Both the position numbers and the translations under genes were made by a program. A stretch of DNA of 20,522 nt from an uncultured Nitrososphaeraceae archaeon (GTDB taxonomy: Archaea; Thermoproteota; Nitrososphaeria; Nitrososphaerales; Nitrososphaeraceae). Location of the stretch: NCBI GenBank assembly GCA_963825865.1, contig CAWGVG010000020.1, forward strand, positions 1 through 20,522, written 5' to 3'. The notes under the pieces were generated by a model. It made no database searches. It was not told the DNA's origin and saw only the letters and a list, made by a program, of their open reading frames with translations. Of this stretch, positions 3,635 to 19,849 are shown one piece after another; position 1 is the stretch's first letter, and every line of letters starts with the position of its first letter.

Positions 3635-5310
3635 CTATTCCTGGAGGACTTTATGAATAAATGAGATCGCAATCGATCCTTCGCCCACTGCGGACGCAAC
3701 ACGCTTGATGCTGCCGCCTCGCACGTCGCCCACTGCGAAAACCCCCGGCAAACTGGTTTCGAGCAAGTACGGTTGACGGGTAATGGGCCAGCCTGCAGTG
3801 CTCAGATTTTCTGGCGACAGATCGGGACCCGTCTTAATGAAGCCTTTAGCGTCGAGTGTAACGCAGCCATTGAGCCAACGGGTGTTCGGAGTCGGCGCCG
3901 GTCATGACGAACACGTGGCTGATGTTGTGCTCCTCAGTCTGTCCCGTTTGACTGTTTCGCCAGCGAACTAATTCGAGGTGATCGCCTCCTTCAAGCGCCA
4001 CGATCTCAGTGTACGGCCGTAATACTATCGTAGCAGTCTCTTCGATCCGGCGAATCAGATAGCGCGACATGCTCTCGGCTAAACCGGCAGACCTGACCAG
4101 CATGTGCACGCGCTTTGTAGTCTCCGCCAGAAACACGGCCGCCTGACCGGCTGAGTTTCCTCCACCAACCACAATCACTTCTTCTCCGCCACACAACTGC
4201 GCTTCCACAAAGGTCGCACCATAATACACGCCCGCACCTTCAAAGCGCGACAAGTTTTTCCAATGGCGGCCTTCGATACTCCGCCCCGGTTGCAATCACG
4301 ATAGTGCGTGCAGGAATTCGAGCTCCGTTCTCGACTTCGACAACGTACGGTTTGCTGTCGCAGACGAGTCGCGTGCCCTTGGCGATGAGCATCTCCGCGC
4401 CGAACTTCTGCGCCTGGTGGTACGCCCGAGCTGCGAGCTCCTGGCCAGAGATACCTGTGGGAAATCCCAAGTAATTTTCGATTTTTGAGCTTGAACCTGC
4501 CTGGCCTCCAGGCGAACTCGTTTCCAGCATCAGAACGTCAAGCCCTTCTGAAGCGCCATACACTGCCGCAGCCAACCCCGAGGGACCGGCGCCGATGATG
4601 ACGAGATCGCGCACCTGAGTTTGGTCAATAGATTCATTGAAGCCGAGGCAGTCTGCAATTTGCTGGTTACTGGGATTCCGAAGCACAACCTTCCCTCGGC
4701 AGATCACCACGGGTATCTCGCTGGCTGCGAGATGGAAACTATCCAATAGGTTCTGTACGTCAGGGTCGCGTTCGAGGTCTATGTAGGAGTATGGATGTCC
4801 GTTGCGCATCAGGAACTCTTTGATCCGAAGTGTACCGGCCGAATGCGTTGAGCCGATGAGCACAACATCTCCCACGCCAGCCGCCACCAACTCAACCCTG
4901 CGGAGAATGAAAGCCCGCGTCAGGATCTCACCAAGCTCCGCATCGCTCTGGATCAAAGCCCGCATATCTTGCCGATCCAGTTCGATCACCTTACCCGGTT
5001 TAGTGGAACGCACGCGAAAGAGAGTCCGGTGGCCGGAGAGCGTGCCGACCTCGCCCGTGAATTGACCAGGACCATGTACGGTGACAAGGGTCTCAACAGG
5101 GAACAAAGGGCGCACAACCTCAAGCTCGCCGGAGACAACGACAAAGAACGGCGCGGCGCTGTCTCCCTGCTCGTAGAGCACTTCGCCACGCTCCACCGCA
5201 CGCATGTGCCCGCGCGCTGCAATGCGACGAATCTGCGCTGGCGTTAATTTCGGAAATATTTGCTCAATATGAGATCTGGTTAGCGGAAGTCCCCTGCGTG
5301 TATTGCTCAT
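3635..5310 (-). CDS. cNMP-binding domain-thioredoxin reductase-like FAD oxidoreductase (frameshifts near 4260 and 3885)
   Basis: N-terminal cNMP domain (GEVLYEQGD..FFVVVSGELEV..GPGQFTGE) and a glutaredoxin-like linker. IIGAGPSGLAAAVY, GGQAGSSSKIENYLGFPTG, VVGGGNSAGQAA and PGVFAVGDVRGGSIKRVASAVGEG follow; TAG at 3635-3637. Confidence 0.9.
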
Positions 5311-10128: not shown

Positions 10129-12283
10129 ATGGTGAGAAAAAAGAATTTACCACAGTTTCAGAATTTAAAATAGACTTTTCATTCAGAAGGGAAGTATTCT
10201 TCATTATTGCAGGAGCCCTTATGGGAGCCATAGCTTATGTTATTCCTATAACCGTCTTTGCAATTGAGGGAGGATCTTCATACTATCTAACATGGATAGT
10301 ATTTGGTCATATCGCTGGTGTTTATTCTCCTATTACTTCAGTCATAACTGCAGGATTTATGCTCCATGTTCTTACTGCAACATGTATCGGTATAATAGCA
10401 GGGCTATTTCTATACAAGACCAATATTCTAAACATAAGCAAACCATCAAATGGGTTGAAATACGGACTCTTTGTAGGATCTTTAGTATTTGCTATCTTTG
10501 CTATACCAGTTCAGGAATTTGTATTAGGGCCTGAATATGCACGCACAACAGTTGGTAGCAGTAGCAGTCAACAACGACAACGACAACTAATACATACCAC
10601 CTGCTGTAATGGAATATTCTCAACCCATGCTTAATAAGCCTTCAATATCTTCAAATCAAATTACCTTAAATCAATTAAGAGCCATCATAGACTCTCTTAT
10701 AATTAATCTAGTTTTCGGAATTACACTTGGACTATTTTCATCATTTCTATCAATAAAATTTGGGGCTAGATACAGATGCCCTAAATGTGATATTTCCTTC
10801 TCAAGGGTTGATTCTCTACAACACCACCTTGAGCTTATACATGGCAGTAAACCAATACATCCAAAAAGGATCCTTATTCTAGGAGGAGGATTTGCAGGAG
10901 TAGCCGTATTAAAAAGACTCCAAAGTAAATTTCAGACTAATGTGAGCATTGAGATTACAATGGTAAGCAAAGATAACTACATGCTATTTACACCGATGCT
11001 TCATGAAGTAGCATCTGGAATGATAGAGACAAGGCATATTGTAACTCCTATCACGAGCCTTTTGTAATAGATCACGATTCTATTCTGCAATAGTGCAAGA
11101 TATTGACCTAAAAAACAAGAGAGTTGTGATTAGGTCTTCAGCAACAACAACACCGCTTGTGAATACTGGTAGATCCATAATAGAGCATGATAGTTTGGAT
11201 TTGAACAACACTAGATCTCTGTATTATGATTATCTTGTAATAGCATTAGGAAGCGAAACAAAGTTTTTTGGAATGTCTGATGTACAGCAAAATGCTTTTA
11301 CGATGAAGAGTTTGAATGATGCGATAAATTTAAGAAATCATGTTGTATATTTACTTGAACAATCAGACCAATTACCTAGCAACTATGCTACCGACACCAC
11401 TACCACTAGCAGTAATAATACTTACAATGATCTTCAAAAAAGATTGTTAACTTTTGTAATAGTAGGAGGTGGTTTTGCAGGAGTAGAAACAGCAGGCGAA
11501 ATAAATGATTTCATTAAAGACTCTGCAAAAGACTATTACCATAATATAGATTCAAACAACATAAGGACTATACTAATTCAATCTGGTAACAGACTTTTAC
11601 CCGAGATGAGTGAAGAATTAGCCGAGTTTGCATTGCAAAAGTTACGTAATAGCGGAGTTGAAGTTATTCTTAATACTCGCGTGGTAGGAGCCACAGCAAA
11701 TAGCGTAAAGTTAAGTAACGGTAATATAATTCCAACAAAGACAATAGTTTGGTCTGGCGGAGTATCTCCTAATTCTCTAATTACTAATCTGCCATGTGAG
11801 CACGATAAGAGTGGCAGAGTAGTTGTAGATAAATATTTGGAAGTACCCCAGTTCAAAGGTGTTTATGCACTTGGTGATTGTGCTTACATAACTGAACCTT
11901 ATACAGGAAAATCATGTCCTCCTACAGCACAGCACGCTATAAGAGAAGGTGCAGTGGTAGCAAAAAATATCATAGCAGCAATAGAGGATGGAAAAAGATT
12001 GGATGACAGAGAGGCATTTGATTACAAAACAAAAGGCATGATGGCTAGTATTGGAAAGCGAACTGGTATAGGTAATTTATTAGGAATAGAAGTGCAAGGA
12101 TTTTTAGCCTGGTGGATATGGCGCAATTATTATCTGGTAAATCTTCCGACATTACAAAAGAAGATAAGAGTAATGTCAGACTGGATGCTAGATATATTCT
12201 TTAAACGTGATGTGACCATGCTCAAAACATTTGTTGAAGAAAAAGAAACAGAAGATATTAAAACCAAGACCTCTTCTATGTAG
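10129..12283 (+). CDS. ndh: Fusion: multi-TM domain + C2H2 zinc finger + type II NAD(P)H dehydrogenase (NDH-2), three frameshifts
   Basis: Hydrophobic N-domain, YRCPKCDISFSRVDSLQHHLELIH, ILGGGFAG, FTPMLHEVASG, YDYLVIALGS, IVGGGFAGVETAGE, ALGDCA, PPTAQHA, YKTKGMMASIG and GFLAWWIWR. Frameshifts near 10140, 10575 and 11055. Confidence 0.85.
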
Positions 12284-13394
12284 AATTGTCATTACGCTTT
12301 TCACATTCGTAATTGGCACTTGTATGAGCTGAAGATTATCATCACCTATAGGGAATTGAGGCGGCAAGAGCTGTACTATTATTCAATCTAAACGATGAGC
12401 AAGTAAAGCAAACAAGCTACATATTCTCCAACCCTATTTTTCGCAATTCTTTGAGAGTATATAACAGATATTAATTAATAGAGTAGACAGCAGGTGAAAG
12501 TATAACTCTTATTACTATTTGTGCCGCATTTTTTGAGGAGTCAAAAATAAATAGTGAGGAATTTGTCAGTTGCGAAAATCGATGACAAATGTAGTTCTTC
12601 TAAAAAACTAGGCATAAATATAATCTTAAACATGAAAATGGAACATCTTTCGAAGACCCTCGTAAGAAATGGAATATTTGAGTTGTCTGGATTTCGTCCT
12701 ATCTTGCAATAGTGCACCACCCTCTATATGTACACAATAACAAGATTGTTAGCAAAAAAGGATCGGCTACTCATTGGTTATAGTCTAATATGAAACAATA
12801 ACGATTAGAGTTAACTGAGAACAAGATTGCTTGTAACGTTGGTGTCCTAAGTTTGGCTCAGTCCGTGTTCTTGAGCTGGTTCTCGACATACCTGTTTGAT
12901 TGTCGAGTACCTGCCTGTCCAGGCTTTGTATGCTCCCCTTTATGGACGACAGGATCAACTCTTGCCATTAGTTGGTCTACTATTGACTAGTAATACTTTC
13001 CACAATATTCTATTACTCTACAGTAAGATGCTAGAGTGTATTTCATTCCGTCTAGTAAAAGAGAAAGATACATTATTAGCCATTATAATAAATATATATA
13101 CATTAGTACATAAGTATGATAAGTATAGAATTTTTTACATTGCCGTTCCTTACAAAGTACTGACGACATAGAAAAAAGCATTCTCTGTATTTAATGTATA
13201 TATAAACAGAATTTGGCTGAAAATCCTTCTTGTCATATTCTATTTTATAAGGACTTAAGTCAAAATAGTGATAATGATTTACCAAGGTAAGCATTCGATG
13301 AAATCCTTGTAATTACATAGTTTTTAAACTGGTTTTTAATGCTATCGGCGAGTATATATTTAGGCTAGTGAGAAAATTCAAACAAGATGGATAA

Positions 13395-13469
13395 GGGCCG
13401 GTGGTCTAGCTTGGTTAAGATATCGCCTTGACATGGCGGGGTTCGTTGGTTCAAATCCGACCCGGCCCA
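13395..13469 (+). tRNA. tRNA-Val (GAC)
   Basis: Acceptor GGGCCGG/CCGGCCC+A, D arm GTCT/AGAT, anticodon arm TCGCC-TTGACAT-GGCGG, T arm GTTGG-TTCAAAT-CCGAC. No intron and no encoded CCA. Confidence 0.96.
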
Positions 13470-13546
13470 TTTCGCTGTCTTGCCATTTATTTTTGTGTTG
13501 CTTTCGGTTAACTGCATCATTTTCCTTCGATTTTTGCGATGTCTCC

Positions 13547-13574
13547 GGCGATATCTTAACCAAGCTAGACCACC
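13547..13574 (-). repeat. Perfect 28-bp inverted copy of the tRNA-Val 5' half (13400-13427)
   Basis: GGCGATATCTTAACCAAGCTAGACCACC is the exact reverse complement of GGTGGTCTAGCTTGGTTAAGATATCGCC. Confidence 0.97.
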
Positions 13575-14265
13575 CCAAATCAGGATTATATTGATGACTA
13601 CTAATTGTCATATCACGACAGTCTGTTGTCATTGAATGATTATTTATTCTCGTTATCAAACCTTGTCCAATAAGTAGCGGCAGCTTCATTACTGCTGAAT
13701 ATCTCCAATTTTCTCTTAATCCTATGGCGCATATGATTCTCATAGTCTCTTGAAACTTTGACCTTGCCTAGAAGCCAATCTCTTTCCCTTCTCGTCAATA
13801 AAGCTAAATCATAGGAGGATTCTTCTACCTTATCTACCATTATCCCATGCAATGAATTACAGTGTTGCTTAAAGAGTTGTCTATCTAGATATTGCTAGAT
13901 AATCTGTTAATTACTGATACAATCTATCAGATTAGCTATAAAGAGGAAAAGATTGGATATGAGCGTGAACATGGGCATATTATAGAAAGGCATATGTCAC
14001 ACCTTCGGTCGCGTGGTATGGCGCAACAGATAATAGACTTCAAGGTAGAACCCCAAAATCTGTTTTTGCAAGGTAATACTTTAGGCATGACCTTGACTAT
14101 CAAAAGATTAAGGATATCATAACTTCATTGTACAAATCTCTTGTATTATCCTAATCAGTAAAAGATCATATCAATAGCAAATATTCTCATTTGCAAAATA
14201 AACTCATTTAGCGGAAATGGATTAGCCAACTAATATTTTTGGTGCATTTGTAAACTAGCAAGAAA

Positions 14266-15720
14266 TTGCGCCAAGTTAGTCACAAATACGCGAAATCGTT
14301 ATTTATTTTCAGAAGAGACTTACGGCTTGAAGATAATACAGGACTAATAGCTGCTTTGCAATTATCCAAGCAAGTCATACCATGTTTCATCTTTGACCCA
14401 AGACAAGTCGAAGATAAACAAAATCCGTACAAGAGCAATAATGCATTACAGTTTATGATTGAATCAATAATAGATTTAGACAAGCAGATACTATCATCAA
14501 CAAAAAGTGATGGCAATAGTTCATTTCATATATTCTATGATGAAGCTGAGAATATAATCGAGCAATTAATACAAAAGGCACAAATTGATGCCGTATTTAG
14601 TAATAGGGATTATACTCCATTTAGCAAAAGTAGGGATAATACTATCAAACAAGTCTGTGAGAAATACAATGTATCGTTTTGTCAGTTTTCGGACTATTTA
14701 CTAAATGAACCCGAATCTGTTTTGGACGAAAAAGGTTTTCCTTTTAAAGTGTTCGGCCATTTCTATAAAAAGGCAATAACTAATCAAATAAGACATCCTC
14801 AAAAATACACATTGCGAATGAAAATAATAATTTCTTTACACAACCAATAAATTCAGAAATAGTAGGAGAAAGAAGATTTCTATAACAAGATCATTGAGAG
14901 ACCGAACGAGAATATACATGTACATGGAGGAAGAAGCAACTGCATTAAAATTCTGACTAATTTGCATAAATTCAAAGATTATGAAACTGAAAGACATTAT
15001 CCTTCAAAATCAGGTACAACAGATTTATCAGCTCATATAAAATTTGGAACTTGCTCTATAAGAGAAGTATTTTATGCTATTAAAGAACAGTTAGGAATCG
15101 AACACCCTCTAATAAGACAACTATTTTGGAGAGATTTCTTTACGTATATTGCATATCATTTTCCTCATGTATTTGGCGCGCCATTTAATAGAAAATATGA
15201 AAACAAGATAAGATGGAATACTGATGTCTCTGTGTTTCAGGCATGGTGTAATGGTCTAACAGGTTTTCCTATTGTAGATGCAGGAATGCGCCAACTAAAC
15301 AGTACAGGATATATTCCCAACAAAATAAGGATGATTGTTGCAACCTTTCTCACAAAGGATTTGCAGATAGATTGGCAGTGGGGCGAGAAGTATTTTGCGC
15401 AGAAACTTGTTGATTATGATCCATCTGTTAACAATGGCTCTTGGCAATGGGTTGCTTCTACAGGCTGCAATAGACAACACCATTTCAGAATATTAAATCC
15501 TTGGATACAACAAAAGAAATTTGATCCTGAATGTGACTACATAAAGAAATGGGTGATTGAACTACATGACCTTCCTGCTACTTCAATTCATAATTTAAAT
15601 AAACAACGACCAATGGATTTGGTAGTAGAATATCCTTTTCCGATAGTAAACCATTCAGAAGCCATCGAAATTGCAGAGAATATGTTTTCTTCCTCTGCGA
15701 TTGATCATATTCGTCAATGA
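14266..15720 (+). CDS. phrB: Deoxyribodipyrimidine photolyase (class I CPD-like), frameshifted near 14810-14880
   Basis: LFIFRRDLRLEDNTGL, GTTDLSAHIKFGTCSIREV, RQLFWRDFF, WCNGLTGFPIVDAGMRQL, DWQWGEKYFAQKLVDYD and NNGSWQW. Confidence 0.92.
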
Positions 15721-18818: not shown

Positions 18819-19849
18819 TTAGAAGCTTAGAGCTATATTCCTCTTCACATAGGATATCTATCTGACAAGCTCTTTGATGTCCTATAGCAAATTATGTAAG
18901 AAACCTTTGATATTCAGGTCATTTACCGGAGTAACTGTATCTGAATTTGAATCCATTTGTAACGAAATTGAACATAACTACGAAGAGCACGAAAGAAGAC
19001 GTCTTCTATCAAGGACGAGAATACGGGATATAGGTGCTGGTAGACCATTTAAGCTTAAAGTTAAAGAAAGATTCGTTATGCTTCTAGTATACTACAGATT
19101 ATACATTACATATACATTATCAGGATTTCTGTTTGACCTTGATCAAAGCAATGTTTGTAGAGATATATCAATGATGGAACCACTTATCAAGGAGTGTATT
19201 CCATTGCCAAAGAAGATATACAAACGTACTAGGAGATTAAGAACTATAGATGAAGTAGAAGAGTGACTTCCTGGATTCAAGGCTTTCATAGACTCTACAG
19301 AACAAGAAATTCCAAGACCTAAGAACAAAAGAAGAAGGAAGAGTTACTATTCAGGTAGAAAGAAGAAACATACTGTCAAGACACAATTGATGGTAAAGAA
19401 GTGAAGGATTGATACTGCATAAGACAGGTCACAGAAGTGGAAGAAAACATGATTATGACATTTACAAACACAATCATTCTATAACTCCATCACAAGTTGA
19501 AAACATAGTTAATCCTGGTTATCTTGGCATTGAAAAGGACTTTCCCATGTAAAGTCTGTTCTTGGTATCAAAAAGAAAAAGGTACATTGCTTTCATGTGA
19601 TGAAAGAACTTACAACAAGAATCATTCTAGGCTAAGGATCATAGTAGAACATACCATATGTAGAATCAAAAAGTTTGGAATAATGGGTACTAAATTTAGA
19701 AACAGATTAAGGAAGTACAATAACGTATCTGATATAATATCCGGTCTCCTGAACTTCAGAGTTATACAGTCTGACAGCATTTCAATCTAAGAAGACGGCT
19801 AAAACAAGTAGGGTGTTAGACTATAGCTCCTAATTACGCAAGAGAATCT
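18804..19849 (+). mobile_element. IS5-family-like insertion sequence (HTH_Tnp_4/DDE_Tnp_4 type), ~1.05 kb
   Basis: Imperfect terminal IRs AGAT-CTCTTGTGTAATTAGAAGC (18804-18826) and the reverse complement of 19826-19849, AGATTCTCTTGCGTAATTAGGAGC. AAT flanks both sides as a candidate TSD. Confidence 0.85.
18874..19790 (+). pseudogene. DDE transposase, frameshifted
   Basis: FRSFTGVTVSEF, GAGRPFKL, FLFDLDQSNVCR, FIDSTEQEIPRP, YYSGRKKKHTVKTQ, HDY and RIIVEHTICRIKKF. The expected DxGY appears as NPGY. Confidence 0.88.

Follow-up and report, generated by a model that had tools for sequence, protein, structure and literature searches.

An inverted copy of the tRNA-Val 5' part beside an integrase-occupied tRNA gene of a Nitrososphaeraceae archaeon: a probable component of an SSV-type attachment module

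The window described here is a stretch of 20,522 nucleotides (nt), the complete contig C20 of a genome assembly (4.98 Mb in 62 contigs, 81.8% complete) from an uncultured Nitrososphaeraceae archaeon, and the locus in question consists of a tRNA-Val(GAC) gene followed closely by a putative integrase gene fragment, int(N), within which lies an inverted copy of the 5' part of that tRNA (Table 1). The tRNA is the only one that ARAGORN finds in the window and it also accounts for the sole Rfam match. A first-pass annotation, made from the letters of the sequence, had reported an exact reverse complement of the tRNA 5' half downstream of the gene, and a repeat search bears this out: the two arms form an inverted repeat of 28 nt with 100% complementarity and 119 nt between them, the second arm beginning 77 nt past the end of the tRNA. 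The arms correspond to tRNA positions 6-33, beginning in the acceptor stem at position 6 and ending with the final base of the anticodon stem's 5' strand, and the copy thus stops at the 5' edge of the anticodon loop as had been noted. A search that tolerated up to three mismatches places the 28-mer at exactly two sites in the window (mean 0.00 and maximum 0 in 100 dinucleotide-preserving shuffles), and the whole assembly contains it at exactly these two places. An inverted 5'-half copy within 300 nt downstream is found at one of the 24 ARAGORN tRNA genes of the genome, which is tRNA-Val(GAC) with a score of 28, the other 23 scoring 8 or less. On the - strand the copy reads GWSSLVKISP and is in frame inside the open reading frame (ORF) 13743..13378, in agreement with the earlier translation. 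Next to it, 13536-13546 is a degenerate copy of the anticodon loop. The spacer between tRNA and copy carries three T-runs on the tRNA strand (T5 at 13490-13494, T4 at 13520-13523 and T5 at 13531-13535) which are likely to act as the tRNA terminator, and on the - strand it encodes a linker rich in K, E and N. Matches of about 72% between 13449-13534 and contigs C2 and C26 of the same assembly proved to be poor alignments to unrelated AT-rich repeats and were rejected.

Table 1. Features of the tRNA-Val(GAC) attachment region (positions in the window; HMM, hidden Markov model; the copy A is called A' in the text)
Feature	Position	Strand	Basis
int(N), distal part: ELPLL motif, linker, copy A, spacer, antisense tRNA; stop codon 13378-13380	13378..13684	-	Frame of ORF 13743..13378; translation
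tRNA-Val(GAC), intact, in its probable attL form: chromosomal 5' part and a 3' part that the element shares or has supplied	13395..13469	+	ARAGORN; Rfam RF00005, 57.2 bits
Inverted repeat, left arm (tRNA positions 6-33, chromosomal 5' half)	13400..13427	+	Repeat search
B, true attachment site as read from the junctions: last 3 nt of the anticodon stem 5' strand to the tRNA 3' end	13425..13469	+	Contig switches at 13425
S, spacer, element-derived, T-rich on the tRNA strand	13470..13546	+	Sequence; T-runs of 5, 4 and 5
A, element-borne inverted copy of the tRNA 5' part (WSSLVKISP in the int(N) frame)	13547..13574	-	Repeat search; translation
int(N) N-terminal domain, LLTxxExxWL...KKL type	13682..13852	-	ORF 13852..13640; HMM
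TT versus a single T in contigs of two other runs	13685..13686	.	One base absent at 13685 in X1 and X19 contigs

The int(N) sequence is distributed over two - strand ORFs, of which ORF 13852..13640 holds the N-terminal domain (hereafter N-domain) in a frame one base off that of the distal part. An HMM profile built from six such domains matches the window at 13682-13822 with an E-value of 1.5e-22, scoring 82.3 bits in the family-wide search. Neither of the two ORFs was matched by Pfam, to which the N-terminal LLTxxExxWL domain shows no match. A homologous domain occurs in a second int(N) remnant of the same genome (G000 contig C11, 10238-10800; L030), where it lies behind a zinc-ribbon ORF and reads antisense into tRNA-Thr(GGT); this remnant is without an inverted 5'-half copy, and its motif ELPLLLEKGLI is matched by KLPLLIGQGLI in the distal part of the window fragment. 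What the fragment belongs to can be read from relatives. In locus L127 a single ORF of 335 amino acids (open at its 3' end) consists of the N-domain, a peptide encoded by antisense tRNA-Val and then a PF16795 'archaeal phage integrase' domain (31.6 bits, cut-off 27), and since the attachment site (att) lies inside the integrase ORF this is an integrase of the SSV type, also called 'suicidal'. A PDB sequence search with L127 gave weak matches only, among them one to 'probable integrase' chains with an E-value of 0.08. In L040 the ORF behind the copy and its att matches PF16795 at 30 bits (cut-off 27) and phrog_5127 at 4.1e-10, and in L047 the same arrangement is followed by an integrase homologue with 59% identity and two stops. 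The location of attP inside the integrase ORF is given as the definition of SSV-type or 'suicidal' integrases in passages of two papers (PMC7253208, PMC8371274), the first of which also describes an antiparallel layout of integrase and tRNA for pT26-2, while in the consulted part of a third, NitEve-E3 is the one such integrase mentioned from Thaumarchaeota (PMC6563490). Judged by its N-domain and by the fusion of this domain to PF16795 in L127, the - strand ORF of the window, predicted to be int(N) by the first-pass annotation, is the int(N) fragment of an SSV-type tyrosine integrase, and the window itself carries int(N) only.

The break between the two int(N) frames coincides with a one-base difference to the contigs of other runs (Table 1). 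Dropping one T at 13685 fuses the two frames into ...EIFSSNELPLLIGQG..., which matches the family motif ELPLL, and the split would be either a strain-specific frameshift or an assembly error. Several other genes of the window are split, so that indel errors in the assembly are possible, also at 13685-13686.

That the inverted copy belongs to a mobile element is shown by the junctions at which the tRNA 5' half is missing. Evidence from public sequencing runs comes from assembled Logan contigs of 4 runs, in which rare variants are dropped. Two of these contigs (X1 record 4 and X2 record 13) carry B and S of the window joined to other sequence immediately left of 13425, with a junction that is open in the integrase frame. 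When 40 relatives were searched with 13380-13900, a match beyond the tRNA was found in G017 only, and here (contig C202) identity to the window likewise ends at 13425. A zinc-ribbon ORF on this contig runs first through the tRNA 5' part as a sense copy, next through a spacer and then through the antisense tRNA 3' part; identity to the tRNA ends at the anticodon stem and is followed by integrase-like coding sequence in place of the tRNA 5' half. The stretch common to the window and such attP-type junctions is B. Together with the window, 18 tRNA-Val modules were found, of which 12 are of the attL type, with the full antisense tRNA next to the copy, and six of the attP type, with other sequence at the same boundary (L023, L040, L045, L047, L048 and L050). 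Since these six have no adjacent tRNA 5' half, the copy exists before integration. The native tRNA-Val loci without an element in the 40 relatives have no copy, and a native structure of the tRNA flank is ruled out by these relatives and by the other 23 tRNAs of the genome, which lack the copy as well. By this comparison the 28-nt copy is to be regarded as part of a mobile element rather than of the chromosome, and the window as an attL junction of a standard SSV-type integration. The suspicion of the first-pass annotation that the perfect repeat exists in the integrated state only is supported by the attP-type modules, the repeat being formed when the element copy lands beside the chromosomal 5' half. 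The reading of the copy as an att scar (attR) is rejected: the copy is element-borne and situated in int(N) at attL.

The remainder of the element is missing from the assembly. A search for the int(C) and attR that the earlier annotation called for yielded, in an assembly that is 81.8% complete, neither a second copy of B nor an attR nor a cognate int(C), the only find being a partial int(C) at C7:59426-59800, and the missing part may have been deleted or left unassembled. To the right of the junction lie a split photolyase and other apparently cellular genes, and the element remnant in the window may amount to about 0.4 kb. A tblastn comparison of seven window proteins flanking the tRNA with 19 tRNA-Val loci from relatives, each taken with some 1.5 kb of flank, gave no match, so that the right end of the element is not settable by comparison. 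A protein search for a longer peptide spanning int(N), copy and att, a weak type of search, returned one weak match among 276 candidates. In L040 (98-230) the sequence past the att core contains a sense T-arm copy which is an inverted partner of 18-26 nt to the antisense T arm, with a small hairpin between the two.

An inverted repeat of this kind could also arise from a fold-back or a chimeric join during assembly, as the first-pass annotation itself had cautioned. The assembly is of the metagenome type with several split genes in the window, and public contigs break near the tRNA. However, a contig of an unrelated public run (X3 record 16) bridges 13430-13685, and the same architecture recurs in four other genomes and ten metagenome contigs, so that these independent assemblies have effectively refuted an artefact, the probability of which is negligible. 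The pattern of copy plus altered anticodon loop was found at six places in five of 238 family genomes and in the ten metagenome contigs. A scan of the genomes of 185,579 species with the copy pattern gave five non-window loci, all already found and all in metagenome-assembled genomes of Nitrososphaeraceae, Nitrososphaera or Thermoproteota, and a scan of IMG/VR with the copy pattern gave no stretches. One X1 contig (record 3) tracks B and S and departs from the window sequence after 13557, within the copy, and is either a variant in which the copy is shorter or an artefact of the assembly graph. In the contigs of at least six relatives (L004, L006, L007, L009, L014 and G022:C55) tRNA-Val(GAC) lies within about 430 nt of the contig end, which suggests that assemblies break at the tRNA, perhaps as a result of integrated elements repeating the tRNA 3' part.

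The N-domain is found adjoining tRNA genes across the family, the profile having matches in 112 of 238 genomes (five of these genomes were left out of further analysis). It was used to choose a sample that is unbiased with respect to the copy, made up of 30 loci from the profile search and 80 from its match list. Of the 23 distinct junctions at which ARAGORN calls a tRNA, eight have the cognate 5' part as a sense copy that beats all of 200 shuffles, as compared to none in the control orientation. When partial tRNAs were recognised with a library of 65 tRNAs, an att was identifiable in 82 of 110 deduplicated records (L106 being counted from both sides), and in 21 of the 82 the cognate 5' part is present as an inverted copy 3' of att, against 0/82 in the control orientation. 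By target, the copy is present in 8/18 records for Val-GAC, 3/3 for Thr-CGT, 7/31 for Thr-GGT, 3/15 for Glu-CTC and 0/15 for Arg, Gln, Ile and Ser; three further Thr-CGT cases with intron-bearing tRNAs were found by BLAST only and stand outside this tally. Copies beside tRNA-Thr and tRNA-Glu derive from those tRNAs and not from tRNA-Val. The test of covariation with the target tRNA, which the first-pass annotation regarded as decisive, is positive in that every copy is cognate, for the part of the family that has one. In a tree of the N-domains, which is based on 66 columns and weakly resolved overall, one clade (support of 97 in the Shimodaira-Hasegawa-like approximate likelihood ratio test, SH-aLRT) has the copy in 12 of 12 rows, although row L051 was found via the copy pattern and L057, L087 and L147 are labelled from BLAST and not by the tally criterion. 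The targets interleave among near-identical N-domains in this clade (six Val, three Thr-GGT and three Thr-CGT), all with a cognate copy, and it follows that copy and att change target together. Within this subtype the copy is present in all eight records with an identifiable att, two others having none identifiable. The target tRNA-Thr genes of L078 and L087 appear to have an intron-like insert by the anticodon and hence are not called by ARAGORN, and the element 3' part abuts this insert. At L106 (464-1053) one antisense tRNA-Val 3' part is flanked by two N-domains that face each other, an arrangement which resembles head-to-head integrase remnants.

The arrangement of the module with respect to the integrase gene is variable. 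In elements whose integrase runs with the tRNA (class II) the order is N-domain, sense 3' part, spacer and antisense 5'-part copy (L080, L094 and L113 at Thr-GGT, L151 and L153 at Glu-CTC), and at the tRNA-Val loci L043 and L050 an int(C) is encoded on the other strand, some 100 nt away from the copy. Whatever the arrangement, behind the regenerated tRNA come first the spacer and next the inverted 5' part, and the position of the module follows the tRNA and not int(N). A further group of int(N) ORFs (L092, L111, L120, L135 and L140 at tRNA-Val, L090 and L110 at tRNA-Ser) runs in sense orientation through a TATA stretch resembling a promoter and on through an entire tRNA gene, and att may here be a whole tRNA copy. 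Spacers of the Val modules measure 41-80 nt and contain a T-run of at least four on the tRNA strand in 18/18 cases. From a reading of the matched stretches, most copies comprise approximately tRNA positions 14-28, directly 5' of the crossover, a point in favour of the pseudo-core proposed below.

Two models of the first-pass annotation placed the function of the repeat at the RNA level, with either an int(N) transcript that runs into the tRNA or a read-through pre-tRNA folding back on itself. In such a device of the integrated state the 28-bp helix would silence antisense RNA against the tRNA, or would block the maturation of a read-through pre-tRNA and insulate the element from the strong tRNA promoter. 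A stable helix is predicted on both strands (-78.5 kcal/mol with a z of -6.1 on the - strand, -82.6 kcal/mol with a z of -8.9 on the + strand), which follows by construction from the repeat. The helix becomes perfect only after integration, the position of the module relative to the tRNA is kept in both gene orientations, as would suit a role in the tRNA transcript, and a contig from an RNA library (X19 record 7) covers 13546-13762 at about 95% identity, with DNA carry-over as a possible source. Archaeal transcription terminates at oligo-T, and with T-runs between tRNA and copy in all 18 spacers the pre-tRNA should end before A'. The antisense of the 3' half would remain unpaired in the loop of an antisense transcript, which makes any quenching partial; other int(N) sequences read antisense into tRNAs without a copy, both on contig C11 and in 18 of 22 Thr-GGT class I records; and archaea are not known to use hairpin terminators. 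As general explanations the two models are weakened by the T-runs and by the occurrence of the module where the integrase runs with the tRNA, and an RNA-level device is considered improbable.

The anticodon loop of the copy differs from the real one. In every Val copy that was read the loop has an extra base or other changes, and the N-domain frame is open through copy and altered loop in five of the six unbiased Val copies, while the real loop, placed in the frame of the copy, gives a TGA stop as had been predicted. The changes in the loop can be inferred to serve the continuity of the integrase ORF, and as a side effect they should make the pseudo-core unable to exchange strands. This bears on a third model of the first-pass annotation, an integration-state switch in which the segment 13428-13546 is invertible: the integrase or homologous recombination would flip it between the true core and the pseudo-core and toggle both tRNA and int(N). 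Two core-like sites do lie in inverted orientation at a distance of about 120 bp, either orientation of the module relative to the int flanks is found among different elements, and in L041 and L054 the copy starts at tRNA position 1, so that a flipped tRNA would there be intact. However, all 12 attL-type loci are canonical with an intact tRNA, and neither these nor the contigs of the 4 runs contain a flipped joint, which in the latter could lie below contig sensitivity. Strand exchange by tyrosine recombinases requires identity of the overlap, and in none of the Val copies read do the two inverted sites have identical crossover regions; the pseudo-loop with its one extra base in Val copies should therefore block exchange. 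The window copy also lacks tRNA positions 1-5, and a flip would destroy what is apparently the only tRNA-Val(GAC) gene of the assembly. Nothing was found in these loci and contigs that shows an integration-state switch, and an active invertible segment is very unlikely. An inversion that rebuilds the split integrase was rejected on geometry, as each of the three inversions that are possible leaves int(N) and int(C) apart, and so was a split-tRNA gene pair, in which the spacer would have to be a leader and is a trailer, with no bulge-helix-bulge junction.

The match between copy and host tRNA extends to positions at which natural tRNAs vary. At three polymorphic positions the copy equals the adjacent tRNA in nine of 12 attL loci as compared to 2.9 expected, and 22 of 100000 permutations reach nine; this permutation test of haplotypes ignores relatedness, and 10 of the 12 loci were found with the copy-derived pattern. 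The attP-type copies, which have no tRNA beside them, match a natural tRNA haplotype over at least 24 nt in five of six cases. At 13423 the window tRNA has a T that makes the top pair of the anticodon stem a G-U pair and that is found in one of 27 tRNA-Val(GAC) variants of the library. The copy in the window carries the same base (at 13551), and so does the copy of L043, though the L043 host tRNA does not. Position 13423 is located on the chromosomal side of the crossover. The host tRNA may at this position have been converted by the element copy, and the haplotypes are consistent with an inferred correction of one arm by the other, possibly in both directions. Such a process would be like the correction of quasi-palindromes by template switching, which would perfect an imperfect inverted repeat and explain the host-specific variants including the rare T at 13423. 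Quasi-palindrome correction is a mutational process and not a system, and it accounts for the maintenance of the copy and not for its origin.

The explanation proposed for these observations is that the free element carries three parts, namely B (the tRNA 3' part with the crossover site), S (the T-rich spacer of 41-80 nt) and A' (the inverted 5' part with its degenerate anticodon loop). Upon integration B replaces the tRNA 3' half, S becomes the new trailer and A' lands about 80 nt downstream of the tRNA, where its partner in a perfect inverted repeat is the chromosomal 5' half; for as long as the element stays integrated, the copy would be kept identical to the host tRNA by template switching or gene conversion. 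That the copy is one part of such an attachment module, located in or at the integrase gene of an SSV-type family of Nitrososphaeraceae, is very probable from the comparison of junctions. As to its role, A' would act as a crossover-incompetent pseudo-core on the P' arm which copies the left arm of attB and binds the integrase. It would thereby mark attP and attL as against attB and attR, whose cores are otherwise pairwise identical (attL = attB, attR = attP), and would be an optional accessory site for assembly or directionality. This putative role as an accessory integrase-binding site is proposed tentatively and stands somewhat short of an even chance; the whole explanation, combining an element-borne module, template correction and a pseudo-core, is likewise tentative and judged to be just under evenly balanced.

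Several observations weigh against this explanation. The copy is absent from 61 of the 82 records and hence dispensable for the family, and it is missing from L127, which targets Val-GAC and is the sole uninterrupted integrase ORF found with att inside. No uninterrupted full-length integrase ORF containing the copy was found, L040 being cut by the contig start and L047 having two stops. The spacer lengths of 41-80 nt have no evident helical phasing, and the distance between copy and B is about 290 nt in Glu-CTC elements. In several Thr-CGT copies (L087) it is the D arm that is best kept and not the anticodon-stem side which a core half-site would need. The longest exact repeats of the 12 attL loci (33, 28, 28, 25, 24, 23, 22, 22, 15, 11, 10 and 8 nt) form a decay gradient as in relics, and the haplotype match is confounded by co-descent of element and host.

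The main rival holds that the copy is a functionless by-product, a scar of the genesis of the att module by half-inversion of a full tRNA copy inside the integrase gene or by a template-switch insertion at the tRNA gene, which is carried with B as a cassette, refreshed while integrated and otherwise decaying. Consistent with a scar are the limited occurrence of the copy (21/82, with none in the intact integrase L127), the decay gradient and the variation of copies at positions where real tRNAs vary, as if re-templated. The int(N) ORFs that run through a complete sense tRNA copy (L092, L111, L120, L135 and L140) could provide the substrate for a half-inversion, and suicidal integrases are described, in the part of the source consulted, as inverting the DNA between inverted att sites in vitro (PMC7253208). 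A scar would, however, have to have arisen independently three or four times at the least (for Val, Thr-CGT, Thr-GGT and Glu), always in the same relative position and orientation (control 0/82), and it would have to be retained in 12 of 12 rows of one clade through repeated target switches. A frame that is open through the copy in five of six cases, and copies that still fit a natural haplotype over at least 24 nt in five of six cases where no tRNA is adjacent, are further points against it. A functionless scar is on balance rather unlikely.

A more ambitious version of the pseudo-core is a working two-core device, in which the pseudo-core would tell occupied sites from empty ones. It would act either as a cis lock on attL against excision and tandem insertion of competitors, or by a flip of the att cassette that allows entry in either orientation, and both cassette orientations relative to the int flanks do occur in different related elements. 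Self-splitting integrases have no known directionality factor; if true, such a device would give them directionality and explain the joint target switch of copy and att. It is considered quite improbable.

Like the SSV-type integrases of SSV1, pTN3 and pT26-2 and like NitEve-E3 of Nitrososphaera evergladensis, the family described here combines a PF16795-type tyrosine recombinase with an attP inside the integrase ORF, as far as the consulted passages on those systems go (PMC7253208, PMC8371274, PMC6563490). It also shares with the descriptions given there an att made of the tRNA 3' part from the anticodon stem or loop, a gene antiparallel to the tRNA and an int(N) that is left reading into the tRNA. 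Unlike the SSV-type elements in these descriptions it has, 41-80 nt from att, an extra inverted copy of the cognate tRNA 5' part. It further differs in having an N-terminal LLTxxExxWL domain without a Pfam match and in including some members that run in the direction of the tRNA and others that read across an entire tRNA copy. As in attP of lambda-like phages with its arm-type sites, an extra site lies on the arm of the element about 100 bp from the core and is present in attP and attL and not in attB and attR, so that it could in principle lend direction to a reaction which is otherwise symmetric. The arm sites of lambda have a sequence of their own that is recognised by a separate domain of Int, whereas the present site copies the left arm of attB and its binding by the integrase is putative. 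A likeness also exists to attP of CTX-phi and to the attC hairpins of integrons, in which two core-like sites lie inverted about 100 nt apart with an imperfect centre. The attP of CTX-phi consists of two inverted dif-like sites that fold in single-stranded DNA. In the present family, unlike in CTX-phi, the sites of the free element are complementary over the anticodon-arm part only (about 12-15 nt), which gives no complete folded site. A CTX-like folded attP was rejected: complementarity between copy and att is too low in the free form, the long helix needs the chromosomal arm and nothing indicates a single-stranded element.

Neither full-text literature searches nor the consulted text of the papers (PMC6563490, PMC8371274, PMC7253208) gave a description of an inverted tRNA 5'-half copy in an integrase or attP, though the supplementary att tables of PMC6563490 and PMC7253208 may hold unremarked ones. 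On present evidence the copy appears to be a previously unremarked second tRNA-derived element of a sizeable branch of the family, always matching the current target. SSV-type integrases are a hallmark of archaeal mobile elements, and the N-domain is common in soil Nitrososphaeraceae (112/238 genomes). If the copy binds integrase, it would supply an asymmetry between attP/attL and attB/attR that is otherwise lacking; if it is a scar, it would record how new attachment sites arise. In addition, the rare base shared at 13423 suggests that a mobile element and a tRNA gene essential to its host undergo repeat-templated correction, possibly in both directions. As a practical marker, an inverted 5'-half copy located 40-80 nt behind a tRNA (up to about 290 nt for Glu-CTC) would flag an occupied site even where the remainder of the element is gone.

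Two short imperfect palindromes were read by eye in the linker just upstream of the copy (13594-13611 and 13616-13631, spanning 13594..13631). Relatives have them at the equivalent place (L030 1900-1940 and the linkers of L078, L087 and L056), with one or two per linker and, in some, 18-bp units centred on GAATTC. The palindrome arms vary among elements with self-complementarity kept, occur with and without a tRNA copy and also encode repeated peptide motifs. They could be protein-binding sites.

Elsewhere in the window four genes are each found in two adjacent ORFs (10609-12283, 14266-15720, 3846-5310 and 18874-19790). The split genes are an NDH-2 with a C2H2 finger piece, a DNA photolyase (N and FAD domains), a cNMP-binding/pyridine-nucleotide oxidoreductase and an insertion sequence (IS) transposase (HTH_Tnp_4 and DDE_Tnp_4). 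The segment 3500-5500, which covers the oxidoreductase ORFs, has a G+C content of 54-56% as compared to about 35% elsewhere and may be foreign DNA.

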